Source: Thermoanaerobaculia bacterium (GTDB taxonomy: Bacteria; Acidobacteriota; Thermoanaerobaculia; Gp7-AA8). Taken from it: 40,211 bases of DNA. This document shows, in pieces, positions 1,859 to 37,897 of the stretch (positions are counted from its first letter, which is position 1; every line of letters begins with the position of its first letter). The DNA lies in contig DASQGS010000181.1 of assembly GCA_035632455.1 (NCBI GenBank), positions 1 through 40,211 of the forward strand, in the 5' to 3' direction. Below the pieces are notes generated by a model. That model did not search any database and was not told the DNA's origin. It saw only the letters and a list, made by a program, of their open reading frames with translations. A program made the translations under genes and the position numbers.

Positions 1859-1907
1859 GCGCTGCTCAACGATTCGGTGTCGGACTCTCATTCCGGCCCG
1901 TTTTTCC

Positions 1908-13965: not shown

Positions 13966-13973
13966 ACGTCGGC

Positions 13974-15086: not shown

Positions 15087-15109
15087 CGGTGAGAATGTTA
15101 CGTGTTGGT

Positions 15110-15243
15110 TGTTGAATTGAATACCAATTGAGCAACGAGGCTCACGCGAAGGAGCGAAGCTTCTATTGATTGAGCTTGTTCATATCCAAGCGAATTCGCG
15201 TCTTCGCGTGGCCATTTGTCTAACTTCAATTCAAGATTCAACA
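15110..15243. repeat. AT-rich ~134-bp imperfect palindrome (MITE-like) containing a copy of the CACGCGAAG family
   Basis: The outer arms TGTTGAAT (15110-15117) and ATTCAACA (15236-15243) pair, as do TTGAATTGAA (15113-15122) and TTCAATTCAA (15225-15234). The inner arms are GGCTCACGCGAAGGAGCGAAGC (15139-15160) and GCGAATTCGCGTCTTCGCGTGGCC (15190-15213), with CACGCGAAG/CTTCGCGTG pairing perfectly. It lies in the divergent spacer between the GT4 and hydrolase genes. Confidence 0.5.
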
Positions 15244-15313
15244 TTTGCCACTCAACATTTATCATTCCCGACTGCGCAGTCTGGTTTTCACTCCGCGGAA
15301 AAGGAGTCCTCGC

Positions 15314-20871: not shown

Positions 20872-20897
20872 GTCGCGGGGCCTCCTTGCCCCGCGAC
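20872..20897 (+). terminator. GC-rich hairpin 17 nt after the lipid-kinase stop (no T-tract)
   Basis: GTCGCGGGGC (20872-20881), loop CTCCTT, GCCCCGCGAC (20888-20897): a perfect 10-bp stem. Confidence 0.45.
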
Positions 20898-20921
20898 CCT
20901 ACTCGCGCAGATGTGACCCAC

Positions 20922-20960
20922 CGTCATCCTGACCCGCGCAGACAGCGTAGGATCTCCTTG
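20922..20960. repeat. REP-like unit, family GTCATCCTGA...GGATCTCC
   Basis: CGTCATCCTGACCCGCGCAGACAGCGTAGGATCTCCTTG aligns with the reverse complement of 32698-32736 (GCGTCATCCTGAGCCGCGTAGACGGCGAAGGATCTCCTC) and with 32622-32678. Confidence 0.7.
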
Positions 20961-20988
20961 GAAAGATCGCAATTATCGCGAGTCCCCT

Positions 20989-21013
20989 CCGCGGGGCGCG
21001 GGACGCCCCGCGG
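20989..21013. repeat. Second perfect GC hairpin in the kinase-htrA spacer
   Basis: CCGCGGGGCG (20989-20998), loop CGGGA, CGCCCCGCGG (21004-21013). It shares the CGCGGGGC core with the hairpin at 20872-20897. Confidence 0.6.
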
Positions 21014-21051
21014 TTGCGGCCGGGACGGCCGCGCTCCTTTAGAATGTGCGT

Positions 21052-22422
21052 ATGAACAAGCTCCGCACCTTCGTACTGCTCTTCGCGCTCACGATCGGCT
21101 GCAAGCCGATGGCCGAATCGCAGACCATCTCGGGTCAGCCGAGACAGGAACATGCGCAGATCCCGCCGACGGTGAGCGCGGTTCGCCGCACGCCGGTGGT
21201 GGTGGTTGCCCACGACATTCTTCCGTGCGTCGTCAACATTCAGACCGAGGCCACGATCCGGCGGCGAGAAGTCGACCCCTTCTTCGACCCGTTCAGCATC
21301 TTCGGAGGCCGCGACCGCGTGTATCAGTCGCAATCGCTGGGCTCGGGATTCGTCTGGTCCTCCGACGGGATCGTCGTCACCAACAATCACGTGGTGGAAG
21401 GTGCGTCGCGGATCACGGTCAACTTCAATGACGGTTCGCAGCTTGCCGCGAAGCTGATCGGCGTCGATCCTGACAGCGATCTGGCCGTGTTGCGCGTCGA
21501 TTCCAGAAAACTGTCGGCCGCGCCGATCGGCACGTCGTCCGACCTGATGATCGGCGAGACAGTCATCGCCATCGGCAACCCGTTCGGCTTGAGCGGCTCG
21601 GTGACCACGGGCGTGGTCTCTGCTTTAGGCCGGTCCGTGCCGTCGAAGGAGGCGGGGCGGACCTTCACGGATTTCATCCAAACCGACGCTTCGATCAATC
21701 CCGGCAATTCCGGCGGGCCCCTCGTCAACATCGAAGGGCGCGTCATCGGCATCAACGTCGCGATCTACGCGCAAGCGCAGAACATCGGCTTCGCCATCCC
21801 TGTCGACCGGGCGAAGAAAGTGATTCAGGATCTGCTCCGCTACGGCGAGGTCCACAGCGCCTGGATCGGGGCGGTCACGGCGACGCTGACGCCGGAGGAG
21901 GCGAAGCGCATCGGCGCGCATGCGCAGAAGGGCGCGCTCGTGGCGCGCGTGTTCGCAGGCTCGCCTGCGCAGGCCGCGGGTCTGCGCGCCGGAGATGTGA
22001 TCGTGGCCGTCAACGGCAAGGGCGTCGATTCGCGCGAAGCCTTCTCCACGCTCACGGCCACTGCATCGATCGGACAGGCCGTCGAGGTGACGTTCATGCG
22101 CGAGGGTGGCAGCTCCCGCACTTCCGTCCGTCCCGGCGAGCCGCCGGCGAACCTCGGGCTGCGGATCCTCGAAGACGTGGCCGGCCTGCGTGTCAGCGAT
22201 GAGGGGAGGAACGTCGTCATCCAGAGCGTGCTCCGCGGATCTCGCAGTGAAAACATCGGCCTCGCCCCGGGCGACGTCATCGTCGGCATCAACGGCTCGG
22301 AGGTCCACTCGGTCAAGGATCTGAACAACGAGCTGAGCAAAGCCGCGGAACGCTCATCGATCGTGCTGTCAGTCGCGCGCGACCGGTACATCTACAACCT
22401 GACGTTCCCGATGGGCGTGTAA
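21052..22422 (+). CDS. htrA: HtrA/DegP-family periplasmic serine protease with two PDZ domains, lipoprotein-type signal
   Basis: ORF 21046..22422. ATG 21052 gives MNKLRTFVLLFALTIGC (lipobox). Catalytic triad contexts are VTNNHVV, DSDLAVL and GNSGGPLVN, followed by two PDZ-like segments. Confidence 0.95.
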   Translation: MNKLRTFVLLFALTIGCKPMAESQTISGQPRQEHAQIPPTVSAVRRTPVVVVAHDILPCVVNIQTEATIRRREVDPFFDPFSIFGGRDRVYQSQSLGSGFVWSSDGIVVTNNHVVEGASRITVNFNDGSQLAAKLIGVDPDSDLAVLRVDSRKLSAAPIGTSSDLMIGETVIAIGNPFGLSGSVTTGVVSALGRSVPSKEAGRTFTDFIQTDASINPGNSGGPLVNIEGRVIGINVAIYAQAQNIGFAIPVDRAKKVIQDLLRYGEVHSAWIGAVTATLTPEEAKRIGAHAQKGALVARVFAGSPAQAAGLRAGDVIVAVNGKGVDSREAFSTLTATASIGQAVEVTFMREGGSSRTSVRPGEPPANLGLRILEDVAGLRVSDEGRNVVIQSVLRGSRSENIGLAPGDVIVGINGSEVHSVKDLNNELSKAAERSSIVLSVARDRYIYNLTFPMGV

Positions 22423-22546
22423 GAAACCAGAAACCAGAAACTAGAAACTAGAAACTAGAAACTAGAAACTGGAAGTAGAAAGTAGCTGCCGCCTTCTGGT
22501 TTCTGGTTTCTGGTTTCTGGTTTCTAGTTTCTGGTTTCTGGTTTCC
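22422..22546. repeat. Heptamer-repeat hairpin: 7 x AGAAACY facing 7 x GGTTTCT, filling the convergent junction
   Basis: The left arm (22422-22470) is AGAAACC x2 then AGAAACT x5. The right arm (22498-22546) is GGTTTCT x4, AGTTTCT, GGTTTCT, GGTTTCC. The arms are about 49 nt with a loop of about 27 nt. The element starts at the last base of the htrA TAA and ends 3 nt before the stop of the minus-strand lipoprotein gene. Confidence 0.92.
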
Positions 22547-22548
22547 GG

Positions 22549-23187
22549 CTACGGTCTTCGGCGCCGGCGCGGCTCGGGCGCGGCGGTCTCCTGCATCTGC
22601 CAGCGCATGGGGATGGCGTTGGTGACGAGGGACTCGGTGGCCTCCATCCACTTGGGAAAGAGCGCTGCCGCAAGGCTTCGATCGTGGACCGCGCGCTCGG
22701 GAATGCCGATGAGCTGCGCGAACGGCGCGGTGTCGTTGATGAAGTTGATCTTCACCTGCAGCGCGCGCGGGTAGTGAATGAACGGCGCGGTACTGGACTG
22801 CGGGACGAGGATCGACACATGGGCCGCCGTCGCGAAGGACTTCTTGTCGCCCGGGTTGACCTGCTGGAGGCGGGGAAGAAGCTCCATGCCGGGCACCTCC
22901 GTGCCGAGGGAGACAGTCACGGTCTGAGTCTCGGGATCGTAGGAGCTCTCGGGCATGATCTCGGCGATGGCGATGGCGGTCTTCCGCTCGTTCGTGATCG
23001 TGTAGCTGAGCGAGATCACCGAGTTCGCCGAGAGTTGATCGTTGTCGATCTCGACGTCGATCCGCACGCCGTTCTCCGTGGCGACCACGCGGCGGGGCTG
23101 CTTGAGATCCACCGGCTTCGACGTCGAGCAGGCAGGCAGAAACGAAGAGACAACGAGCACCGCCAGGACACCGTTCAGGCGTTTCAC
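22549..23187 (-). CDS. Hypothetical lipoprotein (212 aa)
   Basis: MKRLNGVLAVLVVSSFLPAC-STSKP (lipobox LPAC). No family recognised. Coding-like composition on this strand. Confidence 0.7.
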   Translation of the reverse strand: MKRLNGVLAVLVVSSFLPACSTSKPVDLKQPRRVVATENGVRIDVEIDNDQLSANSVISLSYTITNERKTAIAIAEIMPESSYDPETQTVTVSLGTEVPGMELLPRLQQVNPGDKKSFATAAHVSILVPQSSTAPFIHYPRALQVKINFINDTAPFAQLIGIPERAVHDRSLAAALFPKWMEATESLVTNAIPMRWQMQETAAPEPRRRRRP

Positions 23188-23256
23188 GACCGACTCCTCC
23201 CGTTTTCCGGACGATCGTAGCGCAAAAACGGGAGCCCGGCGTCAGCGAATCGTCAC

Positions 23257-23353
23257 GAAAAAGCAGAAGGCAGAAAGCAGAAAGCAGAAATGGTTCTGCG
23301 CGAGAACGTCACTCTTGGCAGATGCCACTTCTGCTTTCTGCCTTCTGCTTTTC
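23257..23353 (-). terminator. Heptamer-repeat hairpin (RGCAGAA units) abutting the lepA stop; probable lepA terminator
   Basis: The plus-strand arm is GAAAAAGCAGAAGGCAGAAAGCAGAAAGCAGAAATGG (23257-23293) and the other arm is CCACTTCTGCTTTCTGCCTTCTGCTTTTC (23325-23353). 24 nt (AAAAGCAGAAGGCAGAAAGCAGAA) pair perfectly, and the left arm has one extra heptamer. In lepA-sense RNA the hairpin ends in CUUUUUC. Confidence 0.8.
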
Positions 23354-25204
23354 TCAGTCGATCTTCAGCACCGCCAGGAACGCTTCCTGCGGAATCTCGA
23401 TCTTCCCCACGCGCTTCATCCGCTTCTTTCCTTCCTTCTGCTTCTCCAGCAGCTTGCGTTTGCGGGAGATGTCGCCGCCGTAGCACTTGGCCAGGACGTC
23501 CTTGCGCAGCGATTTGACGCTCGCGCGGGCGATGATCCTGTTTCCAATCGCGGCCTGCAGGGCCACCTCGAACATCTGCCGCGGGATGAACTCCTTCATC
23601 TTGTCCACGAGCAGCTTGCCGCGGGCATAGGCCTTGTCCTTGTGCACGATCAGGGAGAGCGCGTCGAGCGGGTCGCCGTTGACCAGGATGTCCATCTTCA
23701 CCAGATCGCTGGCCCGGTAGCCGATGAACTGGTAGTCCAGCGAGGCGTATCCGCGGGAGATTGATTTCAGCTTGTCGAAGAAATCGAGGATCACCTCGTT
23801 GAGCGGCATCTCGTAGACGAGCATGACCCGGTTGGAGCTGACGTACTCGAGCTTCTTCTGCTGGCCGCGGCGATCGATAGCCAGGGCCAGGATCGGTCCG
23901 ACAAACTCGTCGTTCGTCAGGATGGTGGCCTCGATGAACGGCTCCTCGATCGAGTCGATGTACGAAGGATCGGGCATCTTCTGAGGATTCTCGATCTCCA
24001 CGACCTCGCCGTCGGTCCTGTTGACGCGGTAGCGGACTCCGGGCGCCGAGGTCAGCAGCTCGAGATTGAACTCTCGCTCCAGCCGCTCCTGGATGATCTC
24101 CATGTGGAGCAGACCGAGAAAGCCGCAGCGGAATCCGAACCCCAGCGCTAGAGAGCTCTCGGGCTCGAAGCTGAACGACGCGTCGTTGAGCTTGAGCTTG
24201 GCCACGGCATCGCGAAGGTTCTCGTAGTCGTCGGTGTTGATCGGGAAAATCCCGGCAAACACCATGGCCTTCACTTCCTGGAAGCCCGGCAGCGGCGCCG
24301 CGCTTCCTTTCTCCTCGGTGATCGTGTCGCCGATCTTTGCCTGGACGATGTCTTTGATGTTGCCTGAGATGAATCCGACCTCGCCGGTGCCGAGCCGGTC
24401 GACGGCCCGGGCCTTCGGCGTGAAGATTCCCATCTCCGTCACTTCATAGACCCGGTCCGTGGAGAGGAACTTGATGCGCATGCCCTTGCGGATCTCGCCG
24501 TCGACGACTCGAACCAGCATCATCACGCCGCGATAAGAGTCGTACCAGGAGTCGAAGAGCAGCGCACGCAACAGTGCGCTCGGATCGCCCTTCGGCGCGG
24601 GAATGTGGGTGATGATCTTGTCGAGGATCTCGTCGACGCCGATGCCCGACTTGGCCGAAGCGAGCACGGCATCGTGTGCGTCGAGGCCGATCACGTTCTC
24701 GATCTGCTCCCGGACGCGCTCCGGCTCGGCGGACGGAAGGTCGACTTTGTTGATTACCGGGAGAATGCTCAGATCGTTGTTGATGGCCAGGTAGCTGTTC
24801 GCCAGAGTCTGTGCCTCGACGCCCTGCGTGGCATCGACCACGAGAATCGCGCCCTCGCACGCCGCCAGGCTCCGGCTGACCTCATAGCTGAAATCGACAT
24901 GGCCCGGCGTGTCGATCAGATTGAAGACATAGTCCTGCCCATCCTTGGCGCGGAAGTTCAGGGTCACGGCCCGGGCCTTGATGGTGATGCCACGCTCGCG
25001 CTCGAGATCCATGTCGTCGAGCATCTGCTCGCTCATGTCGCGCAGCTCCACCGCACCGGTCCTTTGGAGGATGCGGTCGGAGAGCGTGGTCTTCCCGTGA
25101 TCGATATGGGCGATGATCGAGAAGTTGCGGATGTGCTGCGGGTCAGGCAAATTGGGTCCGTTCGTATTGAGGGTTTTCCGGGAGCGCCGAAGGAAGCACG
25201 ACAA
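23354..25204 (-). CDS. lepA: Translation elongation factor 4 (LepA)
   Basis: [22 protein letters not shown]...DTPGHVDF...NKVDL..., with full-length collinearity to EF4 including the C-terminal LepA_C part. The start is uncertain: TTG 25204 (track) or TTG 25150 ([13 protein letters not shown]). Confidence 0.97.
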
Positions 25205-25278
25205 GCCGGCTTAGCGCGGCGTTGAATTAACACGAAAGCGCGGAATTGTCATCCCGCAGAGGGTGGGCGGGACGGAGG

Positions 25279-25312
25279 AAGCAGTGATCAGTGGTCAGTG
25301 GTCGGTGGTCGG
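25279..25312. repeat. CAGTGGT heptamer array (family 1), no inverted partner
   Basis: AAGCAGTGATC AGTGGTC AGTGGTC GGTGGTC GG, directly downstream (in gene sense) of the GT2 stop at 25317. It shares the AAGCAGTGATCAG head with 31428-31440 and with the reverse complement of 37880-37897. Confidence 0.8.
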
Positions 25313-25316
25313 CGCG

Positions 25317-26252
25317 TCATCCTGAGCGTGATTCTCCCGGCATCGATCGCTCCAATAGCCGCGGACCCTGCCTCCGCAGTCGCAGCGCCCCGAAATATCC
25401 TCTCGCCTCTCCGATCAACTTCGCCGGAATCCACCACGGATGCCGGAGCAGATAGCGAGTGGCGATGGTCTTCTGCAAACGGGTTGCCGCGTACCTCCAC
25501 ATCGGCCCGCGGAAGTGTTGAAGGGCGAAGTAGTAGTCCCCGATCGAATGCGCCGCCGACGATGTGCGGCGATGGTCGCCGTAGGTGCGGACGCCGCCGG
25601 ATGCGATCCTCAGATGTCGAATACCGGCGCCCGGCTCGAACCAGATCGCTCCACCGGCATCGACGACGCGGCGGGCGAAATCGGTCTCGAACCGATATGC
25701 CGTGCCGATGTAGTTCTCGTCGAACCCACCAAGCGCGAGGGCCCGCTCGCGAACGACGGAGAGATTGCCGGCCATGACGTTCTCCACGCGGGTACCGGCG
25801 CTGGAGTTGAACAGGAAGTCGAGATCGGGAATCTGCCCTGGCCGAGCAGCCGGTCGCTCGAACGACACCGGCGTCTCTCCCGGCTGAAGGATCTGACCGA
25901 CGACCGCCCAGATCGATGCGTCGCCATGGCGCAGAGCGTGCTGCACCACGAGGTTGCCGATCGGCTCGATGTCGTCATCGAGAAACAGCACGAGCGGTTT
26001 GCCCGCCAGCAACAGCGCAACGTTCATCGCCCTCGGAATCGAAGGCCGGTCGAGCCGCTCCCACCGAATCGTTCCTGCGGCGCTCCACGCTTCAAGACGG
26101 GCGAGGATCTGCTCCGGATGCTGCGCGGTTTGATCGACAACGAGAATCTCCCCAGGCGGATCAGGGAGCTCCAGCAGGCGGGCGATCGTCTCGACGAGAA
26201 TCGGACCACGGTTGTAGCTCGGAATCGCGACCGTCACGTCCGATGCGTGCAT
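25317..26252 (-). CDS. Family 2 glycosyltransferase
   Basis: ATG 26252 gives MHASDVTVAIPSYNRGPILVETIARLLEL...ILVVDQT...FLDDDIEP (GT-A DxD region). The last 8 codons (PGESRSG-stop) are encoded by a GCGTCATCCTGAGCG REP-like sequence. Confidence 0.85.
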   Translation of the reverse strand: MHASDVTVAIPSYNRGPILVETIARLLELPDPPGEILVVDQTAQHPEQILARLEAWSAAGTIRWERLDRPSIPRAMNVALLLAGKPLVLFLDDDIEPIGNLVVQHALRHGDASIWAVVGQILQPGETPVSFERPAARPGQIPDLDFLFNSSAGTRVENVMAGNLSVVRERALALGGFDENYIGTAYRFETDFARRVVDAGGAIWFEPGAGIRHLRIASGGVRTYGDHRRTSSAAHSIGDYYFALQHFRGPMWRYAATRLQKTIATRYLLRHPWWIPAKLIGEARGYFGALRLRRQGPRLLERSMPGESRSG

Positions 26253-26259
26253 GCGAGGG

Positions 26260-26496
26260 TCACCTTTGTGATCGCCACTGATGGCCGCAATCGAGACAGA
26301 CGCGCTCGTTGAGCACAAGGTGAGCGATGACGATCGCCGCGATCATGATTCCAGCAACCAGACCTGCATTCAGCTTCGCCGCAAGGACAGCCAACAAGCC
26401 CGCCGCGACAAGCGCGAGATACACCCCCCAGGTCCTCCGGCCGCCGCGCCTGACGTGAGCGGAGTCGCAATTCGGGCAGGTGCGGTGGTCAGTCAT
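26260..26496 (-). CDS. Small membrane protein with split zinc ribbon (CPNC ... CLDC)
   Basis: [19 protein letters not shown]...two hydrophobic helices...ERVCLDCGHQW. The stop lies 7 nt before the GT2 ATG, and its ATG overlaps the stop of the upstream small ORF (ATGA at 26496-26493). Confidence 0.6.
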   Translation of the reverse strand: MTDHRTCPNCDSAHVRRGGRRTWGVYLALVAAGLLAVLAAKLNAGLVAGIMIAAIVIAHLVLNERVCLDCGHQWRSQR

Positions 26497-26672
26497 GCCG
26501 CGCGCGTGCATGTCTCGGCAGTTTGCGGGATTCGATCGAGCAGGGCGATCAATTCCTCGTCGACGTCGCTGGGCTCCAGGAAGCCGGCGAGCGCGACATA
26601 ATTGGTGTGGACACTCTCGATCTCGATTGCCGTGAGCATTTGACCGCCGCTGATTGTATATTCACTCATCAT
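26493..26672 (-). CDS. Possible small ORF (59 aa), first gene of the minus-strand GT2 operon
   Basis: [59 protein letters not shown]. This is the only part of ORF 26493..27221 that is not antisense to the SDR gene. It is translationally coupled (ATGA) to the zinc-ribbon ORF. No homology recognised, and its ATG overlaps the divergent SDR ATG. Confidence 0.35.
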
Positions 26673-27459
26673 GGACCTCGGAATCCGCAATCGCATCGCC
26701 ATGGTCGCCGCAGCCAGCCAGGGGCTCGGGCGTGCCGCCGCTGAGGCCCTGGCGCGCGAGGGGTGCCGGGTATCGATCTGCTCGCGCTCGCTGGAGTCGC
26801 TCGAAGACGCCCGGCGCGCGATCGAGGCGCGCGGCAGCGACGTGCTGGCCGTGTCGTGCGACGTGACGAAGGCGGACGATCTCCGGCGGTGGTTTGATGC
26901 GACCATCGAGCGCTTCGGGCAGGTCGACATCCTGGTGACGAACACGGGCGGGCCGCCGGCAGCGAGATTCCTCGACCTGTCAGAAGAGGATTGGCGGCAG
27001 GGCATCGACTCCACGCTGATGAATGTCGTGCGGCTCTCGGGCCTCGTCATCCCCGACATGAGGAAGCGGAAGTGGGGGCGGATCGTCCACATCACTTCGC
27101 TCGTCGCGAAGCAGCCGACGGAACTGATCACCATCTCCAGCACGCTGCGAGCCGGCATCTCGGCCCTCACGAAGACGCTCGCCGACCAAGTGGCAAGGGA
27201 CGGCATCCTGGTCAACGCCATCCTGCCGGGCCACTACCTGACCGGCCGCCAGCAGCATCTCGCCGAGATCCGCGCGAAGGAGCAGGGAATCACACCGGAG
27301 CAATATCTCGAAAAAGCCGTCGAATCGATTCCGCTCGGTCGCTACGGGCGCCCGGAGGAGTTGGGCGATGCCATCGCGTTTCTCTGCAGCGAGCGCGCCA
27401 GTTTCATCACCGGCACCAGCATGCAGGTCGACGGCGGACAGATAAGGTCCACGTTTTGA
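26671..27459 (+). CDS. SDR-family oxidoreductase (3-oxoacyl-ACP-reductase-like)
   Basis: [26 protein letters not shown] (Gly-rich NAD(P) motif), ILVTNTGG, and S...[10 protein letters not shown] in place of the YxxxK region, then VNAILPG. Confidence 0.9.
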
Positions 27460-27661
27460 TATGGACTGCGGCGGCTCGCCGCGTATGGACTGCGGCGGCG
27501 AGGCCGCCGCTTTCGATGACCACTGCGCAAGTCCACAGTTTCTTGAGCGTGCCGATTTAAGCTCGCTGCGTAAGCTCACGACCGCCGCTTCGTGGCGCGG
27601 AAAGCGGCAGCCTAGCTGCCGCAGTCCATATGACGGCGGCGAGCCGCCGCAGTCCATATGG
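27459..27661. repeat. 203-nt compound palindrome filling the SDR/tsaD convergent junction
   Basis: There are three stem segments. ATATGGACTGCGGCGGCTCGCCG (27459-27481) pairs perfectly with 27637-27659 (23 bp). TATGGACTGCGGC (27484-27496) pairs perfectly with 27618-27630 (13 bp). GCCGCCGCTTTCG (27503-27515) pairs imperfectly with 27598-27611. Each arm carries TATGGACTGCGGCGG twice. The central loop is about 82 nt. Confidence 0.92.
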
Positions 27662-28720
27662 TCACCCGATGCGCGACCTGGCGGCGACGCGCCGCGGATC
27701 CTGCGCTTCGTTGCTCCGCTGCAATCCGGCGAACGCGATCATGGCGGCGTTGTCGGTGCAGTAGCGCTTTTCAGGCAGGCGAACGATGAGGCCGCGCTGC
27801 CTGCCCCATGCCGCCATGCGGTCGCGCAACACGCCGTTGGCGGCAACGCCGCCTGCGATCACGACCTCGGCCGGCATCGGCTCGCGCTCGCGCAAGAGGC
27901 GCGACCAAATCGTCTCCAGCCGGTCGAACAGTTGCTCGAACAGAGCGTCCTGGAATGTCGCGCAGAAGACTGCGAGGTTGCCGGCGCCGGAAGCGTCTGC
28001 CTGCGCGTGGATGCCGTGTGTGCGCGCCAGCCGGATCGCTCCGGCCTTGATGCCGGAATACGAGAAATCGACCGAGTCGTCCTTGAACTGCGGAACCGGG
28101 AAGGGGAAGCGGCCTCGATCGGCCGTGCCGGCTCGGGCGTGCTTCTCGATTTGTGGACCGCCCGGGTAAGGTAGCCCGATGAACTTCGCCACTTTGTCGA
28201 ACGTCTCGCCGATGGCGTCGTCGCGAGTACGGTTGAGCATTGTCACGGCCGGCGCCTTGCCGTCTTCGCCGCGCCGGATGTCGTAGATCGACGAGTGGCC
28301 GCCGGAGATGACGAGGCTGAGGAATCGCGCCGGAAGTGGACTCGCCGGCCCCTCGGTTTGCAGGTACGGGGAGAAGATGTGGCCTTCGAGATGGTTCACC
28401 GAGATCAGCGGAATACCGAGGCCGTAGGCCAGGCCCTGGGCTCCCGCCACGCCGACCATAAGAGCACCGATCAAACCGGGGCCGGAGGTGACGGCGACTG
28501 CGTCGACGCCGTTCCAGTTCGTGGCGCTATCGTCGAGAGCGCGCCGAATCAGCGGGAAGAGATGTTGCAGATGCTCGCGCGAGGCGATCTCGGGAACGAC
28601 GCCGCCGAAGGGCTGATGGCGGTCGATCTGCGAGGCGATCAGGTTGACGAGGACCGAGCCATCGCGCTCGAGCAGCGCGACCGAAGTTTCGTCGCAAGAG
28701 GTTTCGATGCCGAGGATCAT
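27662..28720 (-). CDS. tsaD: tRNA N6-adenosine threonylcarbamoyltransferase TsaD
   Basis: ATG 28720 gives MILGIETSCDETSVALL...HLEGHIF...GGVAAN..., the canonical Kae1/TsaD signature. Confidence 0.95.
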   Translation of the reverse strand: MILGIETSCDETSVALLERDGSVLVNLIASQIDRHQPFGGVVPEIASREHLQHLFPLIRRALDDSATNWNGVDAVAVTSGPGLIGALMVGVAGAQGLAYGLGIPLISVNHLEGHIFSPYLQTEGPASPLPARFLSLVISGGHSSIYDIRRGEDGKAPAVTMLNRTRDDAIGETFDKVAKFIGLPYPGGPQIEKHARAGTADRGRFPFPVPQFKDDSVDFSYSGIKAGAIRLARTHGIHAQADASGAGNLAVFCATFQDALFEQLFDRLETIWSRLLREREPMPAEVVIAGGVAANGVLRDRMAAWGRQRGLIVRLPEKRYCTDNAAMIAFAGLQRSNEAQDPRRVAARSRIG

Positions 28721-28747
28721 GAGAAGCAAGTGTTCGAACTGAAGGAA

Positions 28748-28784
28748 GCTCACGCGAAGACGCGAAGGCGCGAAACGACCTCAG
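28748..28784. repeat. Half-copy of the CACGCGAAGACGCGAAGG family in the tsaD/valS divergent spacer
   Basis: GCTCACGCGAAGACGCGAAGGCGCGAAACGACCTCAG. The first 27 nt are identical to 317-343 and both copies end in ACC(C)TCAG. No inverted partner nearby. Confidence 0.75.
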
Positions 28785-28793
28785 TTTGACATA

Positions 28794-31427
<2,634 letters not shown>

Positions 31428-31436
<9 letters not shown>

Positions 31437-31467
31437 TCAGCGGTTAGTGGTGATCAGTAGGTGGTGG
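31428..31467. repeat. Degenerate CAGTGGT-family array overlapping the valS stop
   Basis: CAGCAGTGATC AGCGGTT AGTGGTG ATCAGTA GGTGGTG GGC. The TGA of the CAGTGA head (31434-31436) is the valS stop codon. Confidence 0.6.
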
Positions 31468-31533
31468 GCACGGCAGACGCCCTAGACGACGTTTCTCCGC
31501 GATAATCGACGTATCAAGCGGTAGAATTCGTCT

Positions 31534-31752
31534 ATGGCAGGAGCATCTCTAGACCAATTGCTCGAGCTCACCACCGATGAGCGACTCGATATCGTCCAAG
31601 CGATTTGGGACAGCTTGGCACAAAACCCGGAAGCCGTACCGATCACTCAGGCACAACGCGACGAGCTTGACCGAAGGCTGAAAGCCTACGAACAGGACGG
31701 CGATGCCGGAGAGAGTTGGGAATCGGTGAAGCGCTCGTTGCGAGACGAATGA
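31534..31752 (+). CDS. Putative addiction-module antitoxin component (72 aa)
   Basis: LLELTTDERLDIVQAIWDSLAQNPEAVPITQAQRDELDRRLKAYEQDGDAGESWESVKRSL. This fits the pattern of the 'putative addiction module component' family that pairs with ParE/RelE-type toxins (recognised from memory). Confidence 0.7.
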   Translation: MAGASLDQLLELTTDERLDIVQAIWDSLAQNPEAVPITQAQRDELDRRLKAYEQDGDAGESWESVKRSLRDE

Positions 31753-31838
31753 CTCGCGATCTGTTCATCCGTCGCGAATTTGAGTCGTTTCCTTCAAGAA
31801 TCCCAGCTCTTGCCGCGCCTCGTGTACGATTTGCGCGG

Positions 31839-32609
31839 ATGATCTCGATCGACACGCGGCGGATCGTGGCCGGACTGAAGACCATCGAGTCGATCGCCGT
31901 CATCTCGCGCGTCTCCTCCACCAACCTCATCGCACGGCGCGTCGTCAGCGAATGCATCGACAACGATTTGCCCCTTCCGTCTGCGATCATCATTGCCGGC
32001 GAGCAATTCGCGGGACGTGGGCGGAACGGCCGCCACTGGTCCTCGCCTGCCGGAAAGGGGATCTACGCGACGACGTTACTGTCGAGACCGGCGGCGGAGC
32101 TGGCCATGCTGCCGCTGGAGATCGCGAATATCGTCGCCGGATACCTGCGTGAGGTATTCGCAATCGAAGCCGGGATCAAATGGCCGAACGACATTCTCGC
32201 CGGCGGCCGGAAGATCGCCGGCATCCTGATCGAAGCCCGCGTTCAGGACGACCGGGCCTTTCTACTCGCCGGCACCGGCGTGAACGTCGAGCCGGTGAAG
32301 AACGAGTCGCACGCAAACGCCGTCGCCATCAGTGAGGCCGCCCCGCGCAACTTCACCGGCATCGCCGACGCCACCGTGGCCTTCATCGAATACGTCGACG
32401 AGCGCCTCAGGCGCCAGTTCGACCCGGATCGCGTTCTGACCGAGTGGCGACGCCTCACCGTCCACCGCTCCGGCGACCGCATCACCTGCGCCATTGGCGA
32501 CCGGACGGTCTTCGGCACGTGGGGAGGCATCGACGATCACGGTCGCGCGCTGATCAGACAAGGCGAGGAAACGGCGGCAATCTCGGCGGGCGATCTGATC
32601 ATGACGTAG
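31839..32609 (+). CDS. birA: Biotin--[acetyl-CoA-carboxylase] ligase (group I BirA, no HTH)
   Basis: ATG 31839 is internal to ORF 31716..32609. Motifs: SRVSSTNLIA..., GEQFAGRGRNGRHWSSPAGKGIY (GRGRxGRxWxSP) and GIKWPNDIL...KIAGILIE. Confidence 0.85.
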   Translation: MISIDTRRIVAGLKTIESIAVISRVSSTNLIARRVVSECIDNDLPLPSAIIIAGEQFAGRGRNGRHWSSPAGKGIYATTLLSRPAAELAMLPLEIANIVAGYLREVFAIEAGIKWPNDILAGGRKIAGILIEARVQDDRAFLLAGTGVNVEPVKNESHANAVAISEAAPRNFTGIADATVAFIEYVDERLRRQFDPDRVLTEWRRLTVHRSGDRITCAIGDRTVFGTWGGIDDHGRALIRQGEETAAISAGDLIMT

Positions 32610-32621
32610 GTGTCGGCCTTC

Positions 32622-32736
32622 CGTCATCCTGAGGCGGCGGCACCCCGGAGGAGTAGAGCGCGCCGAAGGATCTCCTTGCGCCAACGGCGTTCCTGCCGAG
32701 GAGATCCTTCGCCGTCTACGCGGCTCAGGATGACGC
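32622..32736. repeat. Inverted pair of GTCATCCTGAG...GGATCTCC REP-like units (BIME-like) in the birA/qor convergent junction
   Basis: The left unit spans 32622-32678 (CGTCATCCTGAG...GAAGGATCTCCTTG). The right unit spans 32698-32736 (GAGGAGATCCTTCGCCGTCTACGCGGCTCAGGATGACGC). Both terminal boxes are perfectly complementary. The 19-nt spacer contains CGCC-AAC-GGCG. Confidence 0.88.
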
Positions 32737-32754
32737 ATGACGTGACGCTCCGTG

Positions 32755-33720
32755 TCACGGAATCAGCAGCACCTTTCCCGTCGTCTTCCGCGCCTCCAGC
32801 AGTTGATGTGCCTCGCCCGCCCTTTGCAGAGGAAACTCGCCGCCGATCCGGATCTTGAGCGCGCCGCTGCGAATCCATCCGAGGACTTCGCCGGCGCGCC
32901 AGAGCAACTCGTCGCGCGTGGTCGAGTAATGAGCGAGGCTCGGTCGCGTGAGAAACACACCGTTCTTCGCGAGTCTCGAGGGATCAACGGGCGCCACGGT
33001 GCCGCTCGATTGTCCGAACAGCGCCAGCGTTCCGCGCAAGCCGACGCAATTGAGGCTCTTGTCGAATGTCGTCTTGCCGACGGAGTCGTACACGACGTTC
33101 ACGCCCTTGCCGCCGGTGAGCCGCAGCACCTCGGCCTCGAAGTCGCTGGTCGTGTAGAGGATCACCACGTCGGCTCCCGCCTTCCGCGCGATCGCCGCTT
33201 TCTCCTCGGTCGAGACCGTTGCAAACACCTTTGCTCCCCGCTTCTTCGCGATTTGCACGAGAAGCCCTCCCGCTCCACCGGCAGCGGCGTGCACCAGCGC
33301 GCTGTCTCCTTCTTTCAAGGCGTAGGTACTGACGGCGAGGTAGTGCGCCGTCATGCCCTGCAGCATCGCCGCGGCGGCCGTCCGCGTGTCGACACCGTCC
33401 GGAATCGGCACCAGCTTCCACGCCGGAGCGACGGCGTAGTCCGCGTACGCGCCAGGGACCATCGCATAGGCCACGCGATCTCCAACGCGCAGATTCTCCA
33501 CGCCCGCGCCGACTTTCTCTACGGTTCCCGCGGCCTCCAAACCTGGCGTAAACGGCGTCGCGAGCTTGTACAAACCGGTGCGGTGGTAGACGTCGATGAA
33601 ATTGAGCCCGATGGCCTCGATCTTCACCAGCGCCTCTCCTGCTGCCGGTTCCGGCGTCGGGATGTCGACGTATTCGAGAACCTCGGGACCGCCGGTAGCT
33701 GAAACGCGAATGGCTCGCAT
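32755..33720 (-). CDS. NADPH:quinone oxidoreductase (zeta-crystallin/MDR family)
   Basis: 321 aa: MRAIRVSATGGPEVLEYVDIPTPEPAAGEALVKIEAIGLNFIDVYHRTGLY...VHAAAGGAGGLLVQIAK. Confidence 0.9.
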   Translation of the reverse strand: MRAIRVSATGGPEVLEYVDIPTPEPAAGEALVKIEAIGLNFIDVYHRTGLYKLATPFTPGLEAAGTVEKVGAGVENLRVGDRVAYAMVPGAYADYAVAPAWKLVPIPDGVDTRTAAAAMLQGMTAHYLAVSTYALKEGDSALVHAAAGGAGGLLVQIAKKRGAKVFATVSTEEKAAIARKAGADVVILYTTSDFEAEVLRLTGGKGVNVVYDSVGKTTFDKSLNCVGLRGTLALFGQSSGTVAPVDPSRLAKNGVFLTRPSLAHYSTTRDELLWRAGEVLGWIRSGALKIRIGGEFPLQRAGEAHQLLEARKTTGKVLLIP

Positions 33721-33771
33721 GGCTTTGTACCTCCGGGCGGGGATTTTATTCTGAGTTGAAACCTCGGGTTT

Positions 33772-33815
33772 GTCAGTGGTCAGTTAGTGGTCAGTGGTCA
33801 GTGGTTAGTGGTCAG
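33772..33815. repeat. CAGTGGT heptamer array (family 1), about 6 units
   Basis: GTCAGTGGT CAGTTAGTGGT CAGTGGT CAGTGGT TAGTGGT CAGG, located between the qor start and the GGDEF stop (33828). No inverted partner. Confidence 0.85.
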
Positions 33816-33827
33816 GGCGACCGAGTA

Positions 33828-35114
33828 CTATGCCGATCGCTGTGCCGCAGGCGCGATCACGCGGTTGCGGCCTTCGCGCTTGGCCTGGTACAGGCGCTCG
33901 TCGGCGCGGCCGATGAGCTCCTGCGGCGCGGCGCCGTCTTCCGGAAAGACCGCGACGCCGATGCTCACCGTGACGCCGCGGCCGCCGGCGGGAGGCTGGA
34001 GTGCTTCGACGTTTGCGCGGATTCGCTCGGCCATGGCAACGAGCCCAGCGAGATCGATCTGCGGCGCGATGACCACGAACTCCTCGCCGCCGTAACGCGC
34101 CGGAAAATCGACCGCGCGCAGAGTGTCGCTGATCGCTCGTGAGACGCGCTGCAAGGCCTCGTTCCCCGCGGGATGTCCGAGCTCATCGTTGTAGGCCTTG
34201 AACTTGTCGAGATCGAGGACCAGAACGCCGAATCGCTCGGGATAGCGGCCTGCGCGCTCGATCTCTTCATCGAGGCGCTCGCGGAACGCGCGGAAATTCG
34301 GCAGCCCGGTCAGCTCGTCCGTGCGGGCGTGCGCCGCCAGGGCGGCATGCGACGCTGTGAGTGCGTCGGCCATGTGGTTGAACGCCTCGGCGAGCCGGGC
34401 GATCTCGCGATCGCCCGCAACCGGCGCCCGCGCGCCGAGATCGCCCGCCGCGATGCGGCCGGACGCTGCCGAGAGGTCCTCGAGCGGCCGCACCACTCGG
34501 GCGACGGTGAGGCGGACGACGGCGAAGCTGCAGATCGCGACGATCCAGGCGATCGACAGACCACTCCACATCATCGAGCGCGTGTCGCGCTCCAGCTCGG
34601 GCAACTGCCGGGCGATGGCTTGCTTCCGCGAATCGATGACTTCCTGCGCCGCCCGGTTCACGTCGGAGGAGATCTGAGCCATTTCGGCGAGCGATTGGCC
34701 GCGCGCCGCGGGAGATGCCGCGGGCCAATCGACAACGGCATCGGTGACACTCGCTCCGAACGCCTTCACCTTCGCTCGCAGGATCCCGAGCGGAAGCGTG
34801 TCGAGGGCATCGTTCTGCAGGAGCTGCGAAACCGCGCGGTAGCGCTCCACAGCACGCGGCGGAATCGCGCCGCTCGCGGCCTCCGACTCGAACCGCGATC
34901 GGAATGCGTTCTGCGCGCGAATCAGCTCCTCGAGCGACGCGATGGCCCGAGCCTCGACGCCAATCAGATGGCTCCACCGTTCCTGCGATGCTTTGGCCTG
35001 CCAACTCAACCCGAACGTGATGGCGAAGAGGGCGAGCGCGAACACCCAAGTCAACAGGATCACGCGCGACCGAAGCCGCATCCGGCGATCGACTCGGTCG
35101 TATTGCCGGGTCAT
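33828..35114 (-). CDS. Membrane-bound diguanylate cyclase (periplasmic sensor region, HAMP, GGDEF)
   Basis: 428 aa with an N-terminal TM, a second TM plus HAMP (VRPLEDLSAASGRIAAGDLGARAP), then DELTGLPNFRAF...VLDLDKFKAYNDELGHPAGN...RYGGEEFVVIAP (GGEEF active site). Confidence 0.9.
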   Translation of the reverse strand: MTRQYDRVDRRMRLRSRVILLTWVFALALFAITFGLSWQAKASQERWSHLIGVEARAIASLEELIRAQNAFRSRFESEAASGAIPPRAVERYRAVSQLLQNDALDTLPLGILRAKVKAFGASVTDAVVDWPAASPAARGQSLAEMAQISSDVNRAAQEVIDSRKQAIARQLPELERDTRSMMWSGLSIAWIVAICSFAVVRLTVARVVRPLEDLSAASGRIAAGDLGARAPVAGDREIARLAEAFNHMADALTASHAALAAHARTDELTGLPNFRAFRERLDEEIERAGRYPERFGVLVLDLDKFKAYNDELGHPAGNEALQRVSRAISDTLRAVDFPARYGGEEFVVIAPQIDLAGLVAMAERIRANVEALQPPAGGRGVTVSIGVAVFPEDGAAPQELIGRADERLYQAKREGRNRVIAPAAQRSA

Positions 35115-35235
35115 GACGCGCTCGCACCCGGCGGCTTCAGGTGGGTACGCAAGTTGCCGATCGCGAGATCACGAGGCACGAAGAAAGAATAGCAGGAGGA
35201 CTTGCAAACGCAGGCGCTGCCGATCCAGTCTTCCC

Positions 35236-37347
35236 TCACGACGGAGCGGAGTCGGTCCACTTGCGAATCGATTCGAGGAGGTAGTCGTTGCCCATAAACG
35301 ACACGATGTCGCCGACGCGGCGGCCGATGAGTGCCTTCGCGACATCCGACTGGAGTGAATAGATTCCGCGCTCGGGCGCGGATTCCCATGGGCCAAGGAT
35401 GGTGATCTCGCGGCGAATGTCGCCGTTCGAGACTCCGACCTTCGTGCCCACTCGGACGGCCGTGATGTCGATCGCGGCCGGGTCGAGGACGCGAACCCGC
35501 GAGATCTCGCTCGAGAGCTCGCCGACGCGCGCGGACAGATATTCGGCGCGCTGGCGGGCGGCCTTGTACTCGAAGTTCTCGCGAAGGTCGCCCATCTCGC
35601 GCGCCGCCTGGATGGCTCTCGAGTTCTCGGGAATCTCGACGCGCTTGAGATGATCGAGCTCGGCGCGCTTCTTCTCCAGCATCTCCGCCGTCGCGTACAC
35701 AGGCTCGGATTGCGGCTCGCGAAGCGCCGGATATTTCATGATCAGCGCGTTCCGCAGATTCTCGCGGCGGTATTCCTCCAGGCTGCCGTAGCGCTCGAGC
35801 GAATCGAACAGCTTTCGGGCCTGCTCCTCGTTGTCTTCGGCCATGACGATCCGGGAAGCCAGACCACCCGTGTCGAAGATGTCTTTGAGTCGGGGGCGAA
35901 CCGCGGCGAACTCATCCGATCCGATGGCGTCGAGAACCTGGAAAAGCAGCGCATACGTGGCCTTGTCGCCGAGCGAGTCGTCGTCGGCCACTCGCTTGAC
36001 GTGCCACTGGAAGGCGCGCGGATGGCGGCGCGGATATCGCAGCGTCTCGTCCACGAGCCGGTCGCGCATCTCGGTCTCGCCTGCATTCTCGAGCGTTGAG
36101 ATAATCAGCGAGAGAATGCGTGGCTCGTCGTCGAGGAAGAAGACCTCGCCGAAGACCTTCGTCCAATCGGGGTGGCTCGCGCGAACGCTGCCGAGGGCGC
36201 GCTCGCGAAGAGGCTTGTCGCCGATGGCCGCAACAGTGCGCGATGCCATCGGTCCTCCGAGGAGCGACGCTGGATCGATGCTCGTCCCACGATCGCCGGG
36301 CATCGCTTCGAGCACGGCCAGAATCTGCCAGGCCATCGCTTGATCGCTTCTGGCCAGTTTGGTGGCCTGAACCTGGAGCACCGAGGCGAAGTGGTCTCCG
36401 AGCTCCTTGCTGCGGCTGCTGTGCTTGCGGGCGAGATCGAGCTTGGACTTGACGTCGGCTGCGTCGAAGTCGCGGCGGATGGTTTTCTCCGCATCATCCG
36501 CCGAGGCGTTCCAGGAGTACGTGGCCTTGGCGCCGGTGCCGCTGACGACGATCTGCGGGTTCTTGCGCGCCGAGGTCCACCAGCCGCTCCACTTGTCCTC
36601 CGGCACGATCCCTATCATGGCGTCGCGAGCCTCCGGCATGGTCATGGGACGGCCGAAGCTCTGCAGGAGGCGGGCGAATGTATCGGCCGGCTTGGCCTTG
36701 GCCTCGGCTCTGAGGCGGTCGGGAGCTGTGAACTTCTCGTGCAGCAGATGGCTGGGCGGAACCGGCGTCAGGAACTTTGCCGCGGCGCCGAGCGGCACGG
36801 AGACGCGCTTCTCTTTCTCGAAATCGAGCCGGCAAATGCCGAGCTCAGGGTTCAACTCGGTGACGATCCCCGCTCCGCGGCCGGCCATGAAGTAGGTCGC
36901 GCCTTCATCGTACTGGAGCCACGCCTCGATCTTCTCCGCGCGCTCGACGGGATTGCTGGCCGGATCGCTGAAGCCGGCAAAGTCGAACACACGCTTGAAG
37001 TTCTTTCGATCGGAAAACGCCCCTTTGAGCGCCTGCTCGATCGGGCCGCGGAAGTTCGCGGGATGCTTCGACATCCTGCCGAGCTCTTTCAGCACTTGCA
37101 GGCGCTGTGGCCAGAGCTTCCGCTCGAGCAGCGAGTCGGAGAGGAGGCCGATCAACGTGTCGGATTGGGTTCGCTGCTCTGCTTTCCGAAGTTGCTTCGC
37201 CACGCGGAGGAATGCCTCGGTATTTGAGGCGTCGGATTCGAGCTCGGACATCCAGAGCGATTCGACGTCGTCAAATTTCTTTTGCTCGATCAGAGCATTC
37301 GCATCTTCCGCAAACCCCAAAGCGATTCCCCCCGCAAGGTGTGACAT
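35236..37347 (-). CDS. Large GreA/GreB-family protein: ~550-aa unknown N-terminal region plus a C-terminal Gre-like module
   Basis: ATG 37347 (MSHLAGGIALGF...). The C-terminal ~150 aa read LEKKRAELDHLKRVEIPENSRAIQAAREMGDLRENFEYKAARQRAEYLSARVGEL...VGTKVGV...ITILGPWESAPERGIYSLQSDVAKALIGRRVGD, matching the Gre coiled-coil and FKBP-like domains. Confidence 0.8.
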   Translation of the reverse strand: MSHLAGGIALGFAEDANALIEQKKFDDVESLWMSELESDASNTEAFLRVAKQLRKAEQRTQSDTLIGLLSDSLLERKLWPQRLQVLKELGRMSKHPANFRGPIEQALKGAFSDRKNFKRVFDFAGFSDPASNPVERAEKIEAWLQYDEGATYFMAGRGAGIVTELNPELGICRLDFEKEKRVSVPLGAAAKFLTPVPPSHLLHEKFTAPDRLRAEAKAKPADTFARLLQSFGRPMTMPEARDAMIGIVPEDKWSGWWTSARKNPQIVVSGTGAKATYSWNASADDAEKTIRRDFDAADVKSKLDLARKHSSRSKELGDHFASVLQVQATKLARSDQAMAWQILAVLEAMPGDRGTSIDPASLLGGPMASRTVAAIGDKPLRERALGSVRASHPDWTKVFGEVFFLDDEPRILSLIISTLENAGETEMRDRLVDETLRYPRRHPRAFQWHVKRVADDDSLGDKATYALLFQVLDAIGSDEFAAVRPRLKDIFDTGGLASRIVMAEDNEEQARKLFDSLERYGSLEEYRRENLRNALIMKYPALREPQSEPVYATAEMLEKKRAELDHLKRVEIPENSRAIQAAREMGDLRENFEYKAARQRAEYLSARVGELSSEISRVRVLDPAAIDITAVRVGTKVGVSNGDIRREITILGPWESAPERGIYSLQSDVAKALIGRRVGDIVSFMGNDYLLESIRKWTDSAPS

Positions 37348-37525
37348 TGCCGAGCGCAGTTGCCGGGCGGGCGCCCGGCGCGCGCGGGCGCAGATTGTAA
37401 CCTTCGGCAGAGGAAAAAGCGCGGGCCGGCGGATATTCCTTGACGGAGGCGCCGGAATACGCCCCGCCATGACCACGTTCCCGCCGCGGACCCATCACCG
37501 GACAATCGACAGATCGAGGAGAATC

Positions 37526-37684
37526 ATGGCCGAGAACAAGGCTCACGAGCTATTGCGGAAGCATAACGTCACCGTTGAGGACATCAAGGAAGGGCGCACG
37601 ACCATGCACCACCTGCGCCGTATGGTCCACGCGGACGAGCTTCCGTTCGACGTGTTCAGGGCGCTCGTGAAGATGCGCAGGTAG
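37526..37684 (+). CDS. Possible small protein (52 aa)
   Basis: ATG 37526 follows GAGGAGAA: MAENKAHELLRKHNVTVEDIKEGRTTMHHLRRMVHADELPFDVFRALVKMRR. No family recognised. Confidence 0.4.
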   Translation: MAENKAHELLRKHNVTVEDIKEGRTTMHHLRRMVHADELPFDVFRALVKMRR

Positions 37685-37698
37685 GGCAGCGAGCTGTG

Positions 37699-37897
37699 AA
37701 AGCAGTGAGCAGTTGTCAGTTGTCGGGAAAAGCAGTGAGCAGTTGTCAGTTGGTCGGTGGTCAGCAAGGCTGGCGCTCGCGGTCGCTGCAACGACTCACC
37801 GCTCTCCAACCCGAAGACAAAGGCTGATCGCCGCTCTTCTGACAACTGACCACTGCTTCTCCTGACCACTGACCACTGACAACAGATCACTGCTTCA
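37699..37897. repeat. ~200-nt compound palindrome of the CAGTGGT/CAGTTGT family filling the convergent junction before mpl
   Basis: The left arm carries AAAGCAGTGAGCAGTTGTCAGTTG twice (37699-37722 and 37729-37752, 24/24 identical) and then GTCGGTGGTCAG. The right arm (37839-37897) is CTGACAACTGACCACTGCTTCT CCTGACCACTGACCACTGACAACAGATCACTGCTTCAG, an imperfect reverse complement with two sub-units. The mpl stop (37887-37889) lies inside the AAGCAGTGA head. Confidence 0.88.

Follow-up and report, generated by a model that had tools for sequence, protein, structure and literature searches.

Heptanucleotide repeats located after the ends of bacterial genes have been known for decades, beginning with the short tandemly repeated repetitive (STRR) sequences, and were re-described in Xanthomonas without agreement on their function. 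According to Rehm et al. 2015 (PMC4692102), the heptamers GGGAATC of Xanthomonas and GGGGAYT of Nostoc are ~90% intergenic. GGGAATC lies at a mean distance of 28 nt from the upstream open reading frame (ORF), within ~50 bp of the stop codon or over it, and it is the sense strand that is rich in G. It forms 70-75 convergent, stem-loop-capable pairs per genome, is depleted between divergent ORFs, and varies in length and sequence among close relatives; no function was found (PMC4692102). Here we describe related elements in a window of 40,211 nt (GC 63%) that is the entire contig DASQGS010000181.1 of a soil Thermoanaerobaculia (Acidobacteriota) metagenome-assembled genome (MAG). The hairpins in its gene junctions are the usual 3'-end palindromic elements of the lineage, situated directly after, and sometimes over, stop codons. 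They are of two kinds: periodic hairpins built from tandem 7-nt (less often 8-nt) units of many families, and GC-rich palindromes of dispersed families that resemble repetitive extragenic palindromes (REPs). A preliminary description of the window knew of no described system that combined these features; heptamer inverted pairs after stop codons are in fact on record for Xanthomonas and Nostoc (PMC4692102), and the periodic hairpins are a many-unit version of a known, unexplained kind of heptamer repeat. A literature search for repeats or hairpins in Thermoanaerobaculia found no description.

Several other systems bear comparison. Three heptanucleotides make up the STRR sequences of the cyanobacterium Calothrix, as mentioned in PMC4692102, which also credits Mrázek's group with a 2007 survey in which heptanucleotides were in excess among long simple repeats; polymerase slippage has been proposed as the source of the 7-nt preference (PMC4679880, PMC4692102). 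These repeats share with the present elements their non-coding heptanucleotide arrays, the presence of several units per genome and the want of an established function. To our knowledge, accounts of them deal mainly with direct arrays; in the texts compared, inverted pairing after stop codons, a G-first polarity and turnover at orthologous junctions do not figure. MacGregor 2015 (PMC4679880) described TAACTGA direct repeats in Beggiatoaceae, cyanobacteria and Bacteroidetes that are likewise intergenic heptamer arrays scattered over distant phyla, but these have a single unit, are inverted in only one case and are situated immediately upstream of start codons, whereas our elements lie at 3' ends. 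REPs and bacterial interspersed mosaic elements (BIMEs) are extragenic palindromes dispersed at the 3' ends of genes, in many cases between convergent ones, and the two window elements at 27459-27659 and 32622-32745 appear to behave in this way. For the REPs and BIMEs of enterobacteria and pseudomonads, protection of mRNA 3' ends and an effect on termination have been proposed. REP families have one conserved, non-periodic sequence each and a linked RAYT (a Y1 transposase), in contrast to the tandem-repeat arms of the periodic hairpins. Canonical intrinsic terminators resemble the present elements in being stable stem-loops just past the stop codon that can be common to convergent genes, but have stems of ~5-14 bp and a U-tract of 7-9 nt, whereas the stems here measure 25-70 bp, have periodic arms and lack a U-tract. 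In every bacterial phylum, hairpins are enriched past stop codons and have been attributed to termination (PMC13155455); by this comparison, post-stop hairpins as such are ordinary.

Neighborhoods of homologs of hyp212, a 212-aa protein encoded in the window, were collected from metagenome contigs and 41 species-representative Thermoanaerobaculia/Acidobacteriota MAGs. After duplicate removal, the comparison set held 45 sequences from ~41 related genomes, totaling ~690 kb (615 kb coding and 74 kb intergenic, ~20 kb per genome). Genes were predicted with our own gene caller, which reproduced the gene calls supplied for one relative (L003), and inverted repeats were located with a gapless inverted-repeat finder. 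Fold z-scores compare RNA folding energies with those of 200 dinucleotide shuffles. The finder returned 149 long inverted repeats, ~130 of them in intergenic DNA and 10 in coding DNA, so that their density differs ~100-fold. When only gaps of 40 nt or more were counted, convergent ones carried a long inverted repeat in 44 of 72 cases (61%), tandem ones in 61 of 193 (32%) and divergent ones in 16 of 78 (21%). Fold z-scores below -2 were obtained for the first 110 nt past the stop codon at 72% of convergent and 40% of tandem 3' ends, compared with 22% and 18% of 5' regions, the 22% being the figure for divergent gaps. In convergent gaps, 46 hairpins were present, of which ~17 come within 15 nt of both stop codons; 24 of the 96 gaps of this type measure less than 40 nt. 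Hairpins are thus strongly associated with gene 3' ends throughout the lineage. It had been suggested that convergent junctions are filled by periodic hairpins as a rule; this stands as a lineage-wide tendency of hairpins in general, but periodic hairpins are not peculiar to convergent junctions, occupying 17% of convergent, 17% of tandem and 6% of divergent gaps.

Tandem arrays in intergenic DNA have a period of 7 (52 arrays), 8 (10), 10 (1) or 14 (1). None was found in shuffled gaps, and seven occurred in the 615 kb of coding DNA. The 7-8-nt units follow one another without spacers, and a CRISPR reading was dropped on that ground. An inverted partner was detected within 200 nt for 51 of 66 arrays and several others proved to be paired on inspection, giving ~80% or more, whereas few Nostoc arrays are paired. 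Grouped by unit, the 52 periodic hairpins make up 28 families, several to a genome; some units recur in many genomes, AACGATG in seven. Their arms are 25-70 nt long and have a GC content of 53%, compared with 63% for the genome. In tandem gaps these hairpins start a median of 2.5 nt past the upstream stop codon and end 146 nt before the next start codon; 28 of 32 are closer to the stop, and in 12 of 32 the stop codon lies inside the first arm. Upstream ORFs therefore often end in the first arm, as in L003, where murC (895-2349) runs 35 nt into a GAAAGGC array (hairpin 2315-2393), and the repeat units thus encode some protein C-termini. A looser arrangement was also seen in L003, where inverted GAAAGGC arrays at 7201-7233 and 7458-7490 stand 224 nt apart on either side of a called 72-aa ORF and form no tight hairpin.

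Where composition is informative, the first arm, read 5' to 3' on either strand, is the one richer in G than in C in 44 of 50 periodic hairpins (44 vs 6, p = 3e-8). Counted by unit family, the G-first polarity is 23 vs 5 (p = 0.0009). First arms are also more often purine-rich (36 vs 13 periodic hairpins), and non-periodic hairpins have a weaker G-first bias (57 vs 30). Stop codons within the first arm were considered as the cause of the polarity and rejected (18 vs 10), with 20 of the 52 first arms containing no stop. No U-tract was hidden in an A/T asymmetry of the second arm, which is not T-rich (27 vs 21, not significant), and none of the 52 periodic arms has the four or more GGG runs of a potential G-quadruplex (G4). 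A weaker hybrid of pyrimidine RNA with purine DNA during synthesis of the second arm, or avoidance of exposed C-rich RNA, could underlie the polarity. One heptamer occurs in both arm orders, GAATGTT first in L010 (895-953 and 3741-3800) and AACATTC first in L020 (1533-1616), and this pair is one of the few G-first exceptions.

The likeness to the Xanthomonas and Nostoc repeats, a type defined by 7-nt arrays of at least ~3 copies, is close: 7-nt arrays predominate (52 of the 64 intergenic arrays), they lie next to the stop codon, the G-rich arm is on the sense side, inverted pairs are formed and divergent gaps are depleted. Of the positional and structural features that mark the Xanthomonas repeats, only the single, G4-capable G-tract unit is lacking. 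Xanthomonas and Nostoc, members of other phyla, have one dominant G-tract unit per genus with G4 potential, whereas 28 families without G4-capable arms were found here, with arms of up to 70 nt and some 8-nt units.

Within the window, a periodic hairpin at 22423-22545 extends from stop to stop across the convergent junction of HtrA (21046-22422, plus strand) and hyp212 (22549-23187, minus strand). Its 53-nt arms are 91% complementary and hold ~7 copies of AGAAACY and its complement (period 7, 9.3 and 7.4 copies); the segment 22420-22548 folds at -86.4 kcal/mol (z = -16.1). A second periodic hairpin (23259-23352, minus strand) lies in the tandem junction 1 nt past the stop of LepA (23354-25150/25204, minus strand). 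It has 24-nt arms of AAAGCAG/AAGGCAG heptamers with 100% complementarity, a fold of -56.1 kcal/mol for 23255-23353 on the minus strand (z = -9.2), and a unit family that is also present in L014, L015 and L032. The third, at 37700-37895 (minus strand), has 56-nt arms (79%) of CAGTKGT heptamers with a duplicated 30-mer and folds at -106.6 kcal/mol (37690-37900, minus strand; z = -7.0). It includes the stop codon of murC (37887-39323, minus strand) and precedes the greA-like gene (35236-37476, minus strand). A hairpin with ACGCGAAG octamer arms (315-402, minus strand; fold of 310-407, -53.6 kcal/mol, z = -7.6) follows 2 nt past the stop of a weak minus-strand ORF, 405-668.

The other paired 3'-end elements of the window are not periodic. 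The convergent junction of SDR (26671-27459, plus strand) and TsaD (27662-28753, minus strand) is filled by a 201-nt composite hairpin (27459-27659) with nested arms of 24 and 31 nt. It is REP-like, with TATGGACTGCGGCGGC..GCCGC duplicated at 24-nt spacing and mirrored, and 27455-27665 folds at -140.2 kcal/mol (z = -10.9). Its motif GGASTGCGGYRGC matches 17 intergenic and 4 coding sites in 9 of the 45 non-duplicate sequences, the window included. Between BirA (31716-32609, plus strand) and Zn-ADH (32755-33720, minus strand), also convergent, an imperfect hairpin (32622-32745) folds with a z-score of only -2.9 (32610-32754, -71.4 kcal/mol). It belongs to a dispersed GTCATCCTGAG...GAAGGATCTCC family (GTCATYCYGAG...CGAAGGATCY), with the motif at 32623 on the plus and 32734 on the minus strand; the family has 29 intergenic and 4 coding matches in 16 of the 45 sequences, again including the window. 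Both REP-like motifs thus recur mostly in intergenic DNA. A GC-rich hairpin (20872-21013, plus strand; -71.4 kcal/mol, z = -4.8) occupies the tandem junction after the diacylglycerol-kinase-like gene (19983-20855, plus strand).

Three further 3' ends carry single arrays without a fold. One of the CAGTGGT family (25282-25312, minus strand) lies 4 nt from the stop of GT2 (25317-26318, minus strand) and has no partner arm (25279-25312, z = -0.8). A degenerate CAGTGRT array (31428-31467, plus strand) overlaps the stop of ValRS (28794-31436, plus strand; z = +0.85), and a GTCAGTG/TGGTCAG array (33772-33815, minus strand) lies 12-15 nt past the stop of the HAMP-GGDEF gene (33828-35114, minus strand; z = +0.45). 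None of these folds is better than shuffled sequence. The arrays at 25282, 31428 and 33772 and both arms of 37700 form one family, which in alignment consists of the head AGCAGTGAKCAG followed by TGGTCAG-type units; direct sequence reading shows AGCAGTGATCAG as a head common to 31428, 25282 and 37700. The octamer ACGCGAAG forms the 3'-end hairpin at 315-402 and is found at two further loci, both in divergent gaps. A hairpin of this type at 15139-15214 in the gap between GT4 (13974-15086, minus strand) and DLH (15245-16153, plus strand) folds with z = -3.15 (15090-15239) and is a counter-example to a strict 3'-end rule; a single array of three ACGCGAAG units (28752-28774, z = +0.6) lies in the divergent TsaD/ValRS junction and overlaps the start codon of TsaD by the codon's first 2 nt.

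These results modify the preliminary description in several respects. Its long hairpins exist, with fold z-scores of -3 to -16 at the paired loci, including the same-direction 3' ends at 23259-23352, 315-402 and 20872-21013, but not at the half-arrays 25279, 31428 and 33772. Its periodic arms hold for 22422-22545, 23260-23351, 25282-25310, 33772-33815, 37699-37892 and 321-344 (period 7 or 8), and not for 27459-27659, 32610-32754 or 20872-21013. The claim that each locus has a different unit fails on the two families above. Five convergent junctions had been counted; there are four, of which three are filled by hairpins and the fourth, cheB/GT4, has, as stated there, a gap of 8 nt (13966-13973) and no hairpin. 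The supposed fifth (37685-37886) is the same-strand murC to greA-like junction. Its typing had relied on a plus-strand ORF, 36953-37684, which has no Pfam match and an antisense-type codon-position GC (0.49/0.58/0.77) and overlaps the greA-like gene. In L003, murC and the greA-like gene (HTH_GRAD plus GreA) are adjacent on one strand with 58 nt between them. We conclude from the shadow-like nature of this ORF and the gene order in L003 that the junction is not convergent.

Comparison of orthologous junctions revealed that the hairpin is kept while its unit changes. In relatives, hyp212 follows LepA and converges on a STAS/anti-sigma pair, and the window differs from this synteny. The convergent hyp212/STAS junction carries at least 10 different periodic units, including AGTTGTC, GTGCTCG, GGCCGTT, CGGTTTT, GTCCTTA, GATTAGTG and GTTCCTCG; in other genomes it holds one of several REP-like families or is a gap of at most ~30 nt. 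The tandem junction ~2.9 kb downstream nearly always has a hairpin, with varied units. At the murC to greA-like junction, CAGTKGT in the window is replaced by a GAAAGGC hairpin in L003. Genomes with the same flanks (L033, L044, L037 and L038; L014 and L015) differ in the number and variants of their units, sometimes in only one of the two arms (L044); these differences fit slippage. Copies within a genome share loop as well as arms, as do the three CGTTAGC hairpins of L003 and the CAGTGRT family of the window, whereas loops are unrelated across genomes despite an identical unit. Variant units are mirrored between the two arms, with 96 mismatches against 163 expected when unit order is permuted, although this is a rough test. 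Among mismatches of tandem-junction hairpins, no sense-strand excess of G-U was detected (31 vs 27 antisense). The arms are long and nearly perfect, turnover is fast and no RNA-strand signature is seen; together these findings point to making and renewal of the elements at the DNA level, with the post-stop position persisting. The preliminary description had considered a genome-specific mechanism; a DNA-level generating process is plausible, but the pattern is not genome-specific, being present in ~41 Thermoanaerobaculia genomes. Closer relatives were sought for change at strain level, and metagenome scans with hyp212 and an 84%-identical relative (P0002) returned no loci. Homologs of LepA reached 90% identity at best. 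Three contigs that have one and the same LepA proved to be either identical or an N-containing scaffold.

We consider it somewhat probable that these hairpins, when transcribed, end or insulate transcription from both sides and protect mRNA 3' ends. Transcription would produce a very stable stem-loop, which would stop or insulate transcription without a U-tract and shield the mRNA 3' end; because a palindrome is the same on both strands, one element would serve both genes of a convergent pair. The elements would arise at the DNA level, spreading by copying within the genome and then growing or shrinking by slippage of the 7/8-nt units. They turn over rapidly, with the position past the gene end persisting, and base-by-base tuning at the RNA level would play no part.

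Several observations weigh against this proposal. Strong inverted repeats are lacking in 68% of tandem gaps of at least 40 nt, family members occur in two divergent gaps of the window (15139-15214 and 28752-28774), and three of its arrays are unpaired and unfolded. The absence of a canonical U-tract from the window elements, already noted in the preliminary description, extends to the comparison set, where stems are followed by a mean of 2.4 T in 10 nt, and at least 5 T are present in 12% of cases. Terminator-like sites are at chance level (16 vs 12.5). Mycobacterial RNA polymerase is reported to require a U-tract (PMC3993855), and with the tract missing, factor-independent termination is doubtful. 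The lack of G-U asymmetry means that there is no positive sign of RNA-level selection. A transposase, RAYT included, was not found among the Pfam-annotated genes of loci with gene lists, and no other copying machinery was identified there. The window itself has no Rfam family match at gathering thresholds.

The main rival, which we regard as possible although doubtful, is that the palindromes are selfish mobile elements akin to MITEs (miniature inverted-repeat transposable elements) or REPs, mobilized in trans by a RAYT or IS200/IS605-type enzyme and tolerated after stop codons, with hairpin and position as by-products. The arms and loops shared by within-genome copies, the few families per genome with several copies per 20 kb, and the unrelated families at orthologous junctions are all consistent with it, as are the ending of 12 of 32 upstream ORFs in the first arm and the missing mismatch bias; the depletion of divergent gaps fits selection against promoter disruption. 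Neutral insertion, however, predicts neither an exclusive 7/8-nt period nor the G-first polarity of 44 vs 6, and an identical unit is found with unrelated loops in different genomes. Junctions tend to be either closed, with a gap of ~30 nt or less, or hairpin-bearing, which suggests that the position needs a hairpin. That no transposase appears among the annotated genes of these loci tells against this explanation as well, and no obvious target-site duplication was seen in the flanks of three same-family copies, nor was a parent insertion sequence element. Next in weight is an origin as a mutational by-product, in which short terminator stems were expanded by slippage favoring 7 nt, arms were matched by intrastrand template switching, and the period has no function. 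Heptanucleotides dominate long simple repeats in many prokaryotes, for which a slippage bias of the polymerase has been proposed (PMC4679880, PMC4692102), and the variable unit number of orthologs, which in L044 differs in one arm only, and the mirrored variant units would follow from such a process. It leaves unexplained the shared loops of within-genome copies, the G-first polarity and the recurrence of units across genomes that are ~50% diverged in the neighboring protein, and slippage alone predicts periods of 5, 6 and 9 in non-coding DNA, none of which was seen. We judge it improbable.

Binding of the arrays by a protein that covers ~7 nt per subunit, such as a cold-shock protein with an OB-fold, would explain the strict 7/8-nt period and the existence of partnerless single arrays; by coating one arm, such a protein would open the hairpin and so control read-through or the decay of the mRNA. 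CspB of B. subtilis has been reported on heptamer direct repeats at one protein per heptamer, as related in PMC4679880. The 28 unrelated unit families speak against a sequence-specific binder and no candidate gene is linked to the arrays; we regard this reading as very unlikely. An artifact of short-read metagenome assembly, which the preliminary description had named as a possibility, is extremely improbable. The window is a MAG contig and tandem repeats are prone to misassembly, but arms of 25-70 nt are probably, on our assumption, shorter than typical short reads, and hairpins of the same kinds occur in records that, judging by their names, come from different assembly pipelines and sample sets, among them k141/k127 contigs, NODE-style contigs, curated scaffolds and contigs of 2.5-5 Mb (such as L027, L031 and L040). 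L001 and L002, from different samples and assemblies, differ at 3 of 11,643 positions (99.97% identity), three hairpins included, and L051 and L052 are identical over 4.3 kb aligned, including a heptamer array. Independent assemblies and multi-megabase contigs effectively refute the artifact.

A more elaborate version of the termination proposal, which we think unlikely when taken as a whole, treats the 7-8-nt period as a matter of design instead of a chance product of slippage. Each unit of the second arm, which is rich in pyrimidines and C, would on transcription leave a completed stem one unit behind the RNA 3' end, a distance of 7-8 nt that roughly matches an RNA:DNA hybrid or a U-tract in length. 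RNA polymerase would thus face one attempt at termination after another, nested and tolerant of register, on a weak r(Y):d(R) hybrid. Such a bidirectional, U-tract-free terminator would also account for the G-first polarity. Alternatively, or in addition, a dedicated DNA-level activity might build and copy palindromic repeats beside stop codons.

Thermoanaerobaculia provide a second and clearer system for this long-known class of repeats, with the same placement, pairing and G-first polarity but dozens of unrelated units. As none of these units has G-quadruplex potential, an explanation through G4 structures is removed, and period, polarity, pairing and post-stop position are isolated as the common features. 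For annotation, antisense shadow ORFs beside the hairpins can mislead junction typing, and real ORFs may end inside arrays.

The gene map of the window is based on Pfam matches and codon-position GC. A plus-strand cheA-MCP-cheW-cheR-cheB cluster ends at 13965; beyond GT4 and DLH, the plus strand encodes TPR (16809-18653) and DUF4388 (18660-19955) proteins ahead of the diacylglycerol-kinase-like gene, and a DUF1573 gene (plus strand) begins at ~39314, next to murC. Opposite real genes lie long shadow ORFs on the antisense strand, without Pfam matches and with a high third-position GC: 36953-37684 (plus strand), which led to the wrong junction type, 25440-26312 (plus strand) and 695-1930 (minus strand). 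The greA-like gene, which lies directly downstream of the murC hairpin, encodes a Gre-factor-like protein of unusual length (746 aa) in which the GreA/GreB N- and C-terminal domains occupy only residues 594-727. Its long N-terminal region has no Pfam match, and the 690-aa ortholog in L003 has PF27167 HTH_GRAD in addition to the GreA domains.

The hyp212 protein has no Pfam domain and belongs to a family of ~120 clusters that is seemingly confined to Thermoanaerobaculia and related Acidobacteriota. In the family alignment, 31 residues are invariant, and a Cys that hardly varies, at position 20, may represent a lipoprotein signal.

Outside the window, the comparison set contains a conserved structured element of ~150 nt at L003 4900-5064, L018 1360-1522, L021 164-328, L025 3773-3934 and L037 3173-3335, and also in L026, L027, L028, L038, L044 and L049. 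No Rfam family matched it, either at gathering thresholds or at E <= 1, and it may be an undescribed non-coding RNA of Thermoanaerobaculia. Its core is nearly invariant (…GAGACCCTTCAGCT.CGCGCCCACCTCGGACCCAACCACGG…CTCTCTCTCTCTGCAACGCG.GCCGGAGGGTCTCG), and in its closing stem 7 pairs have changed in a compensatory way.

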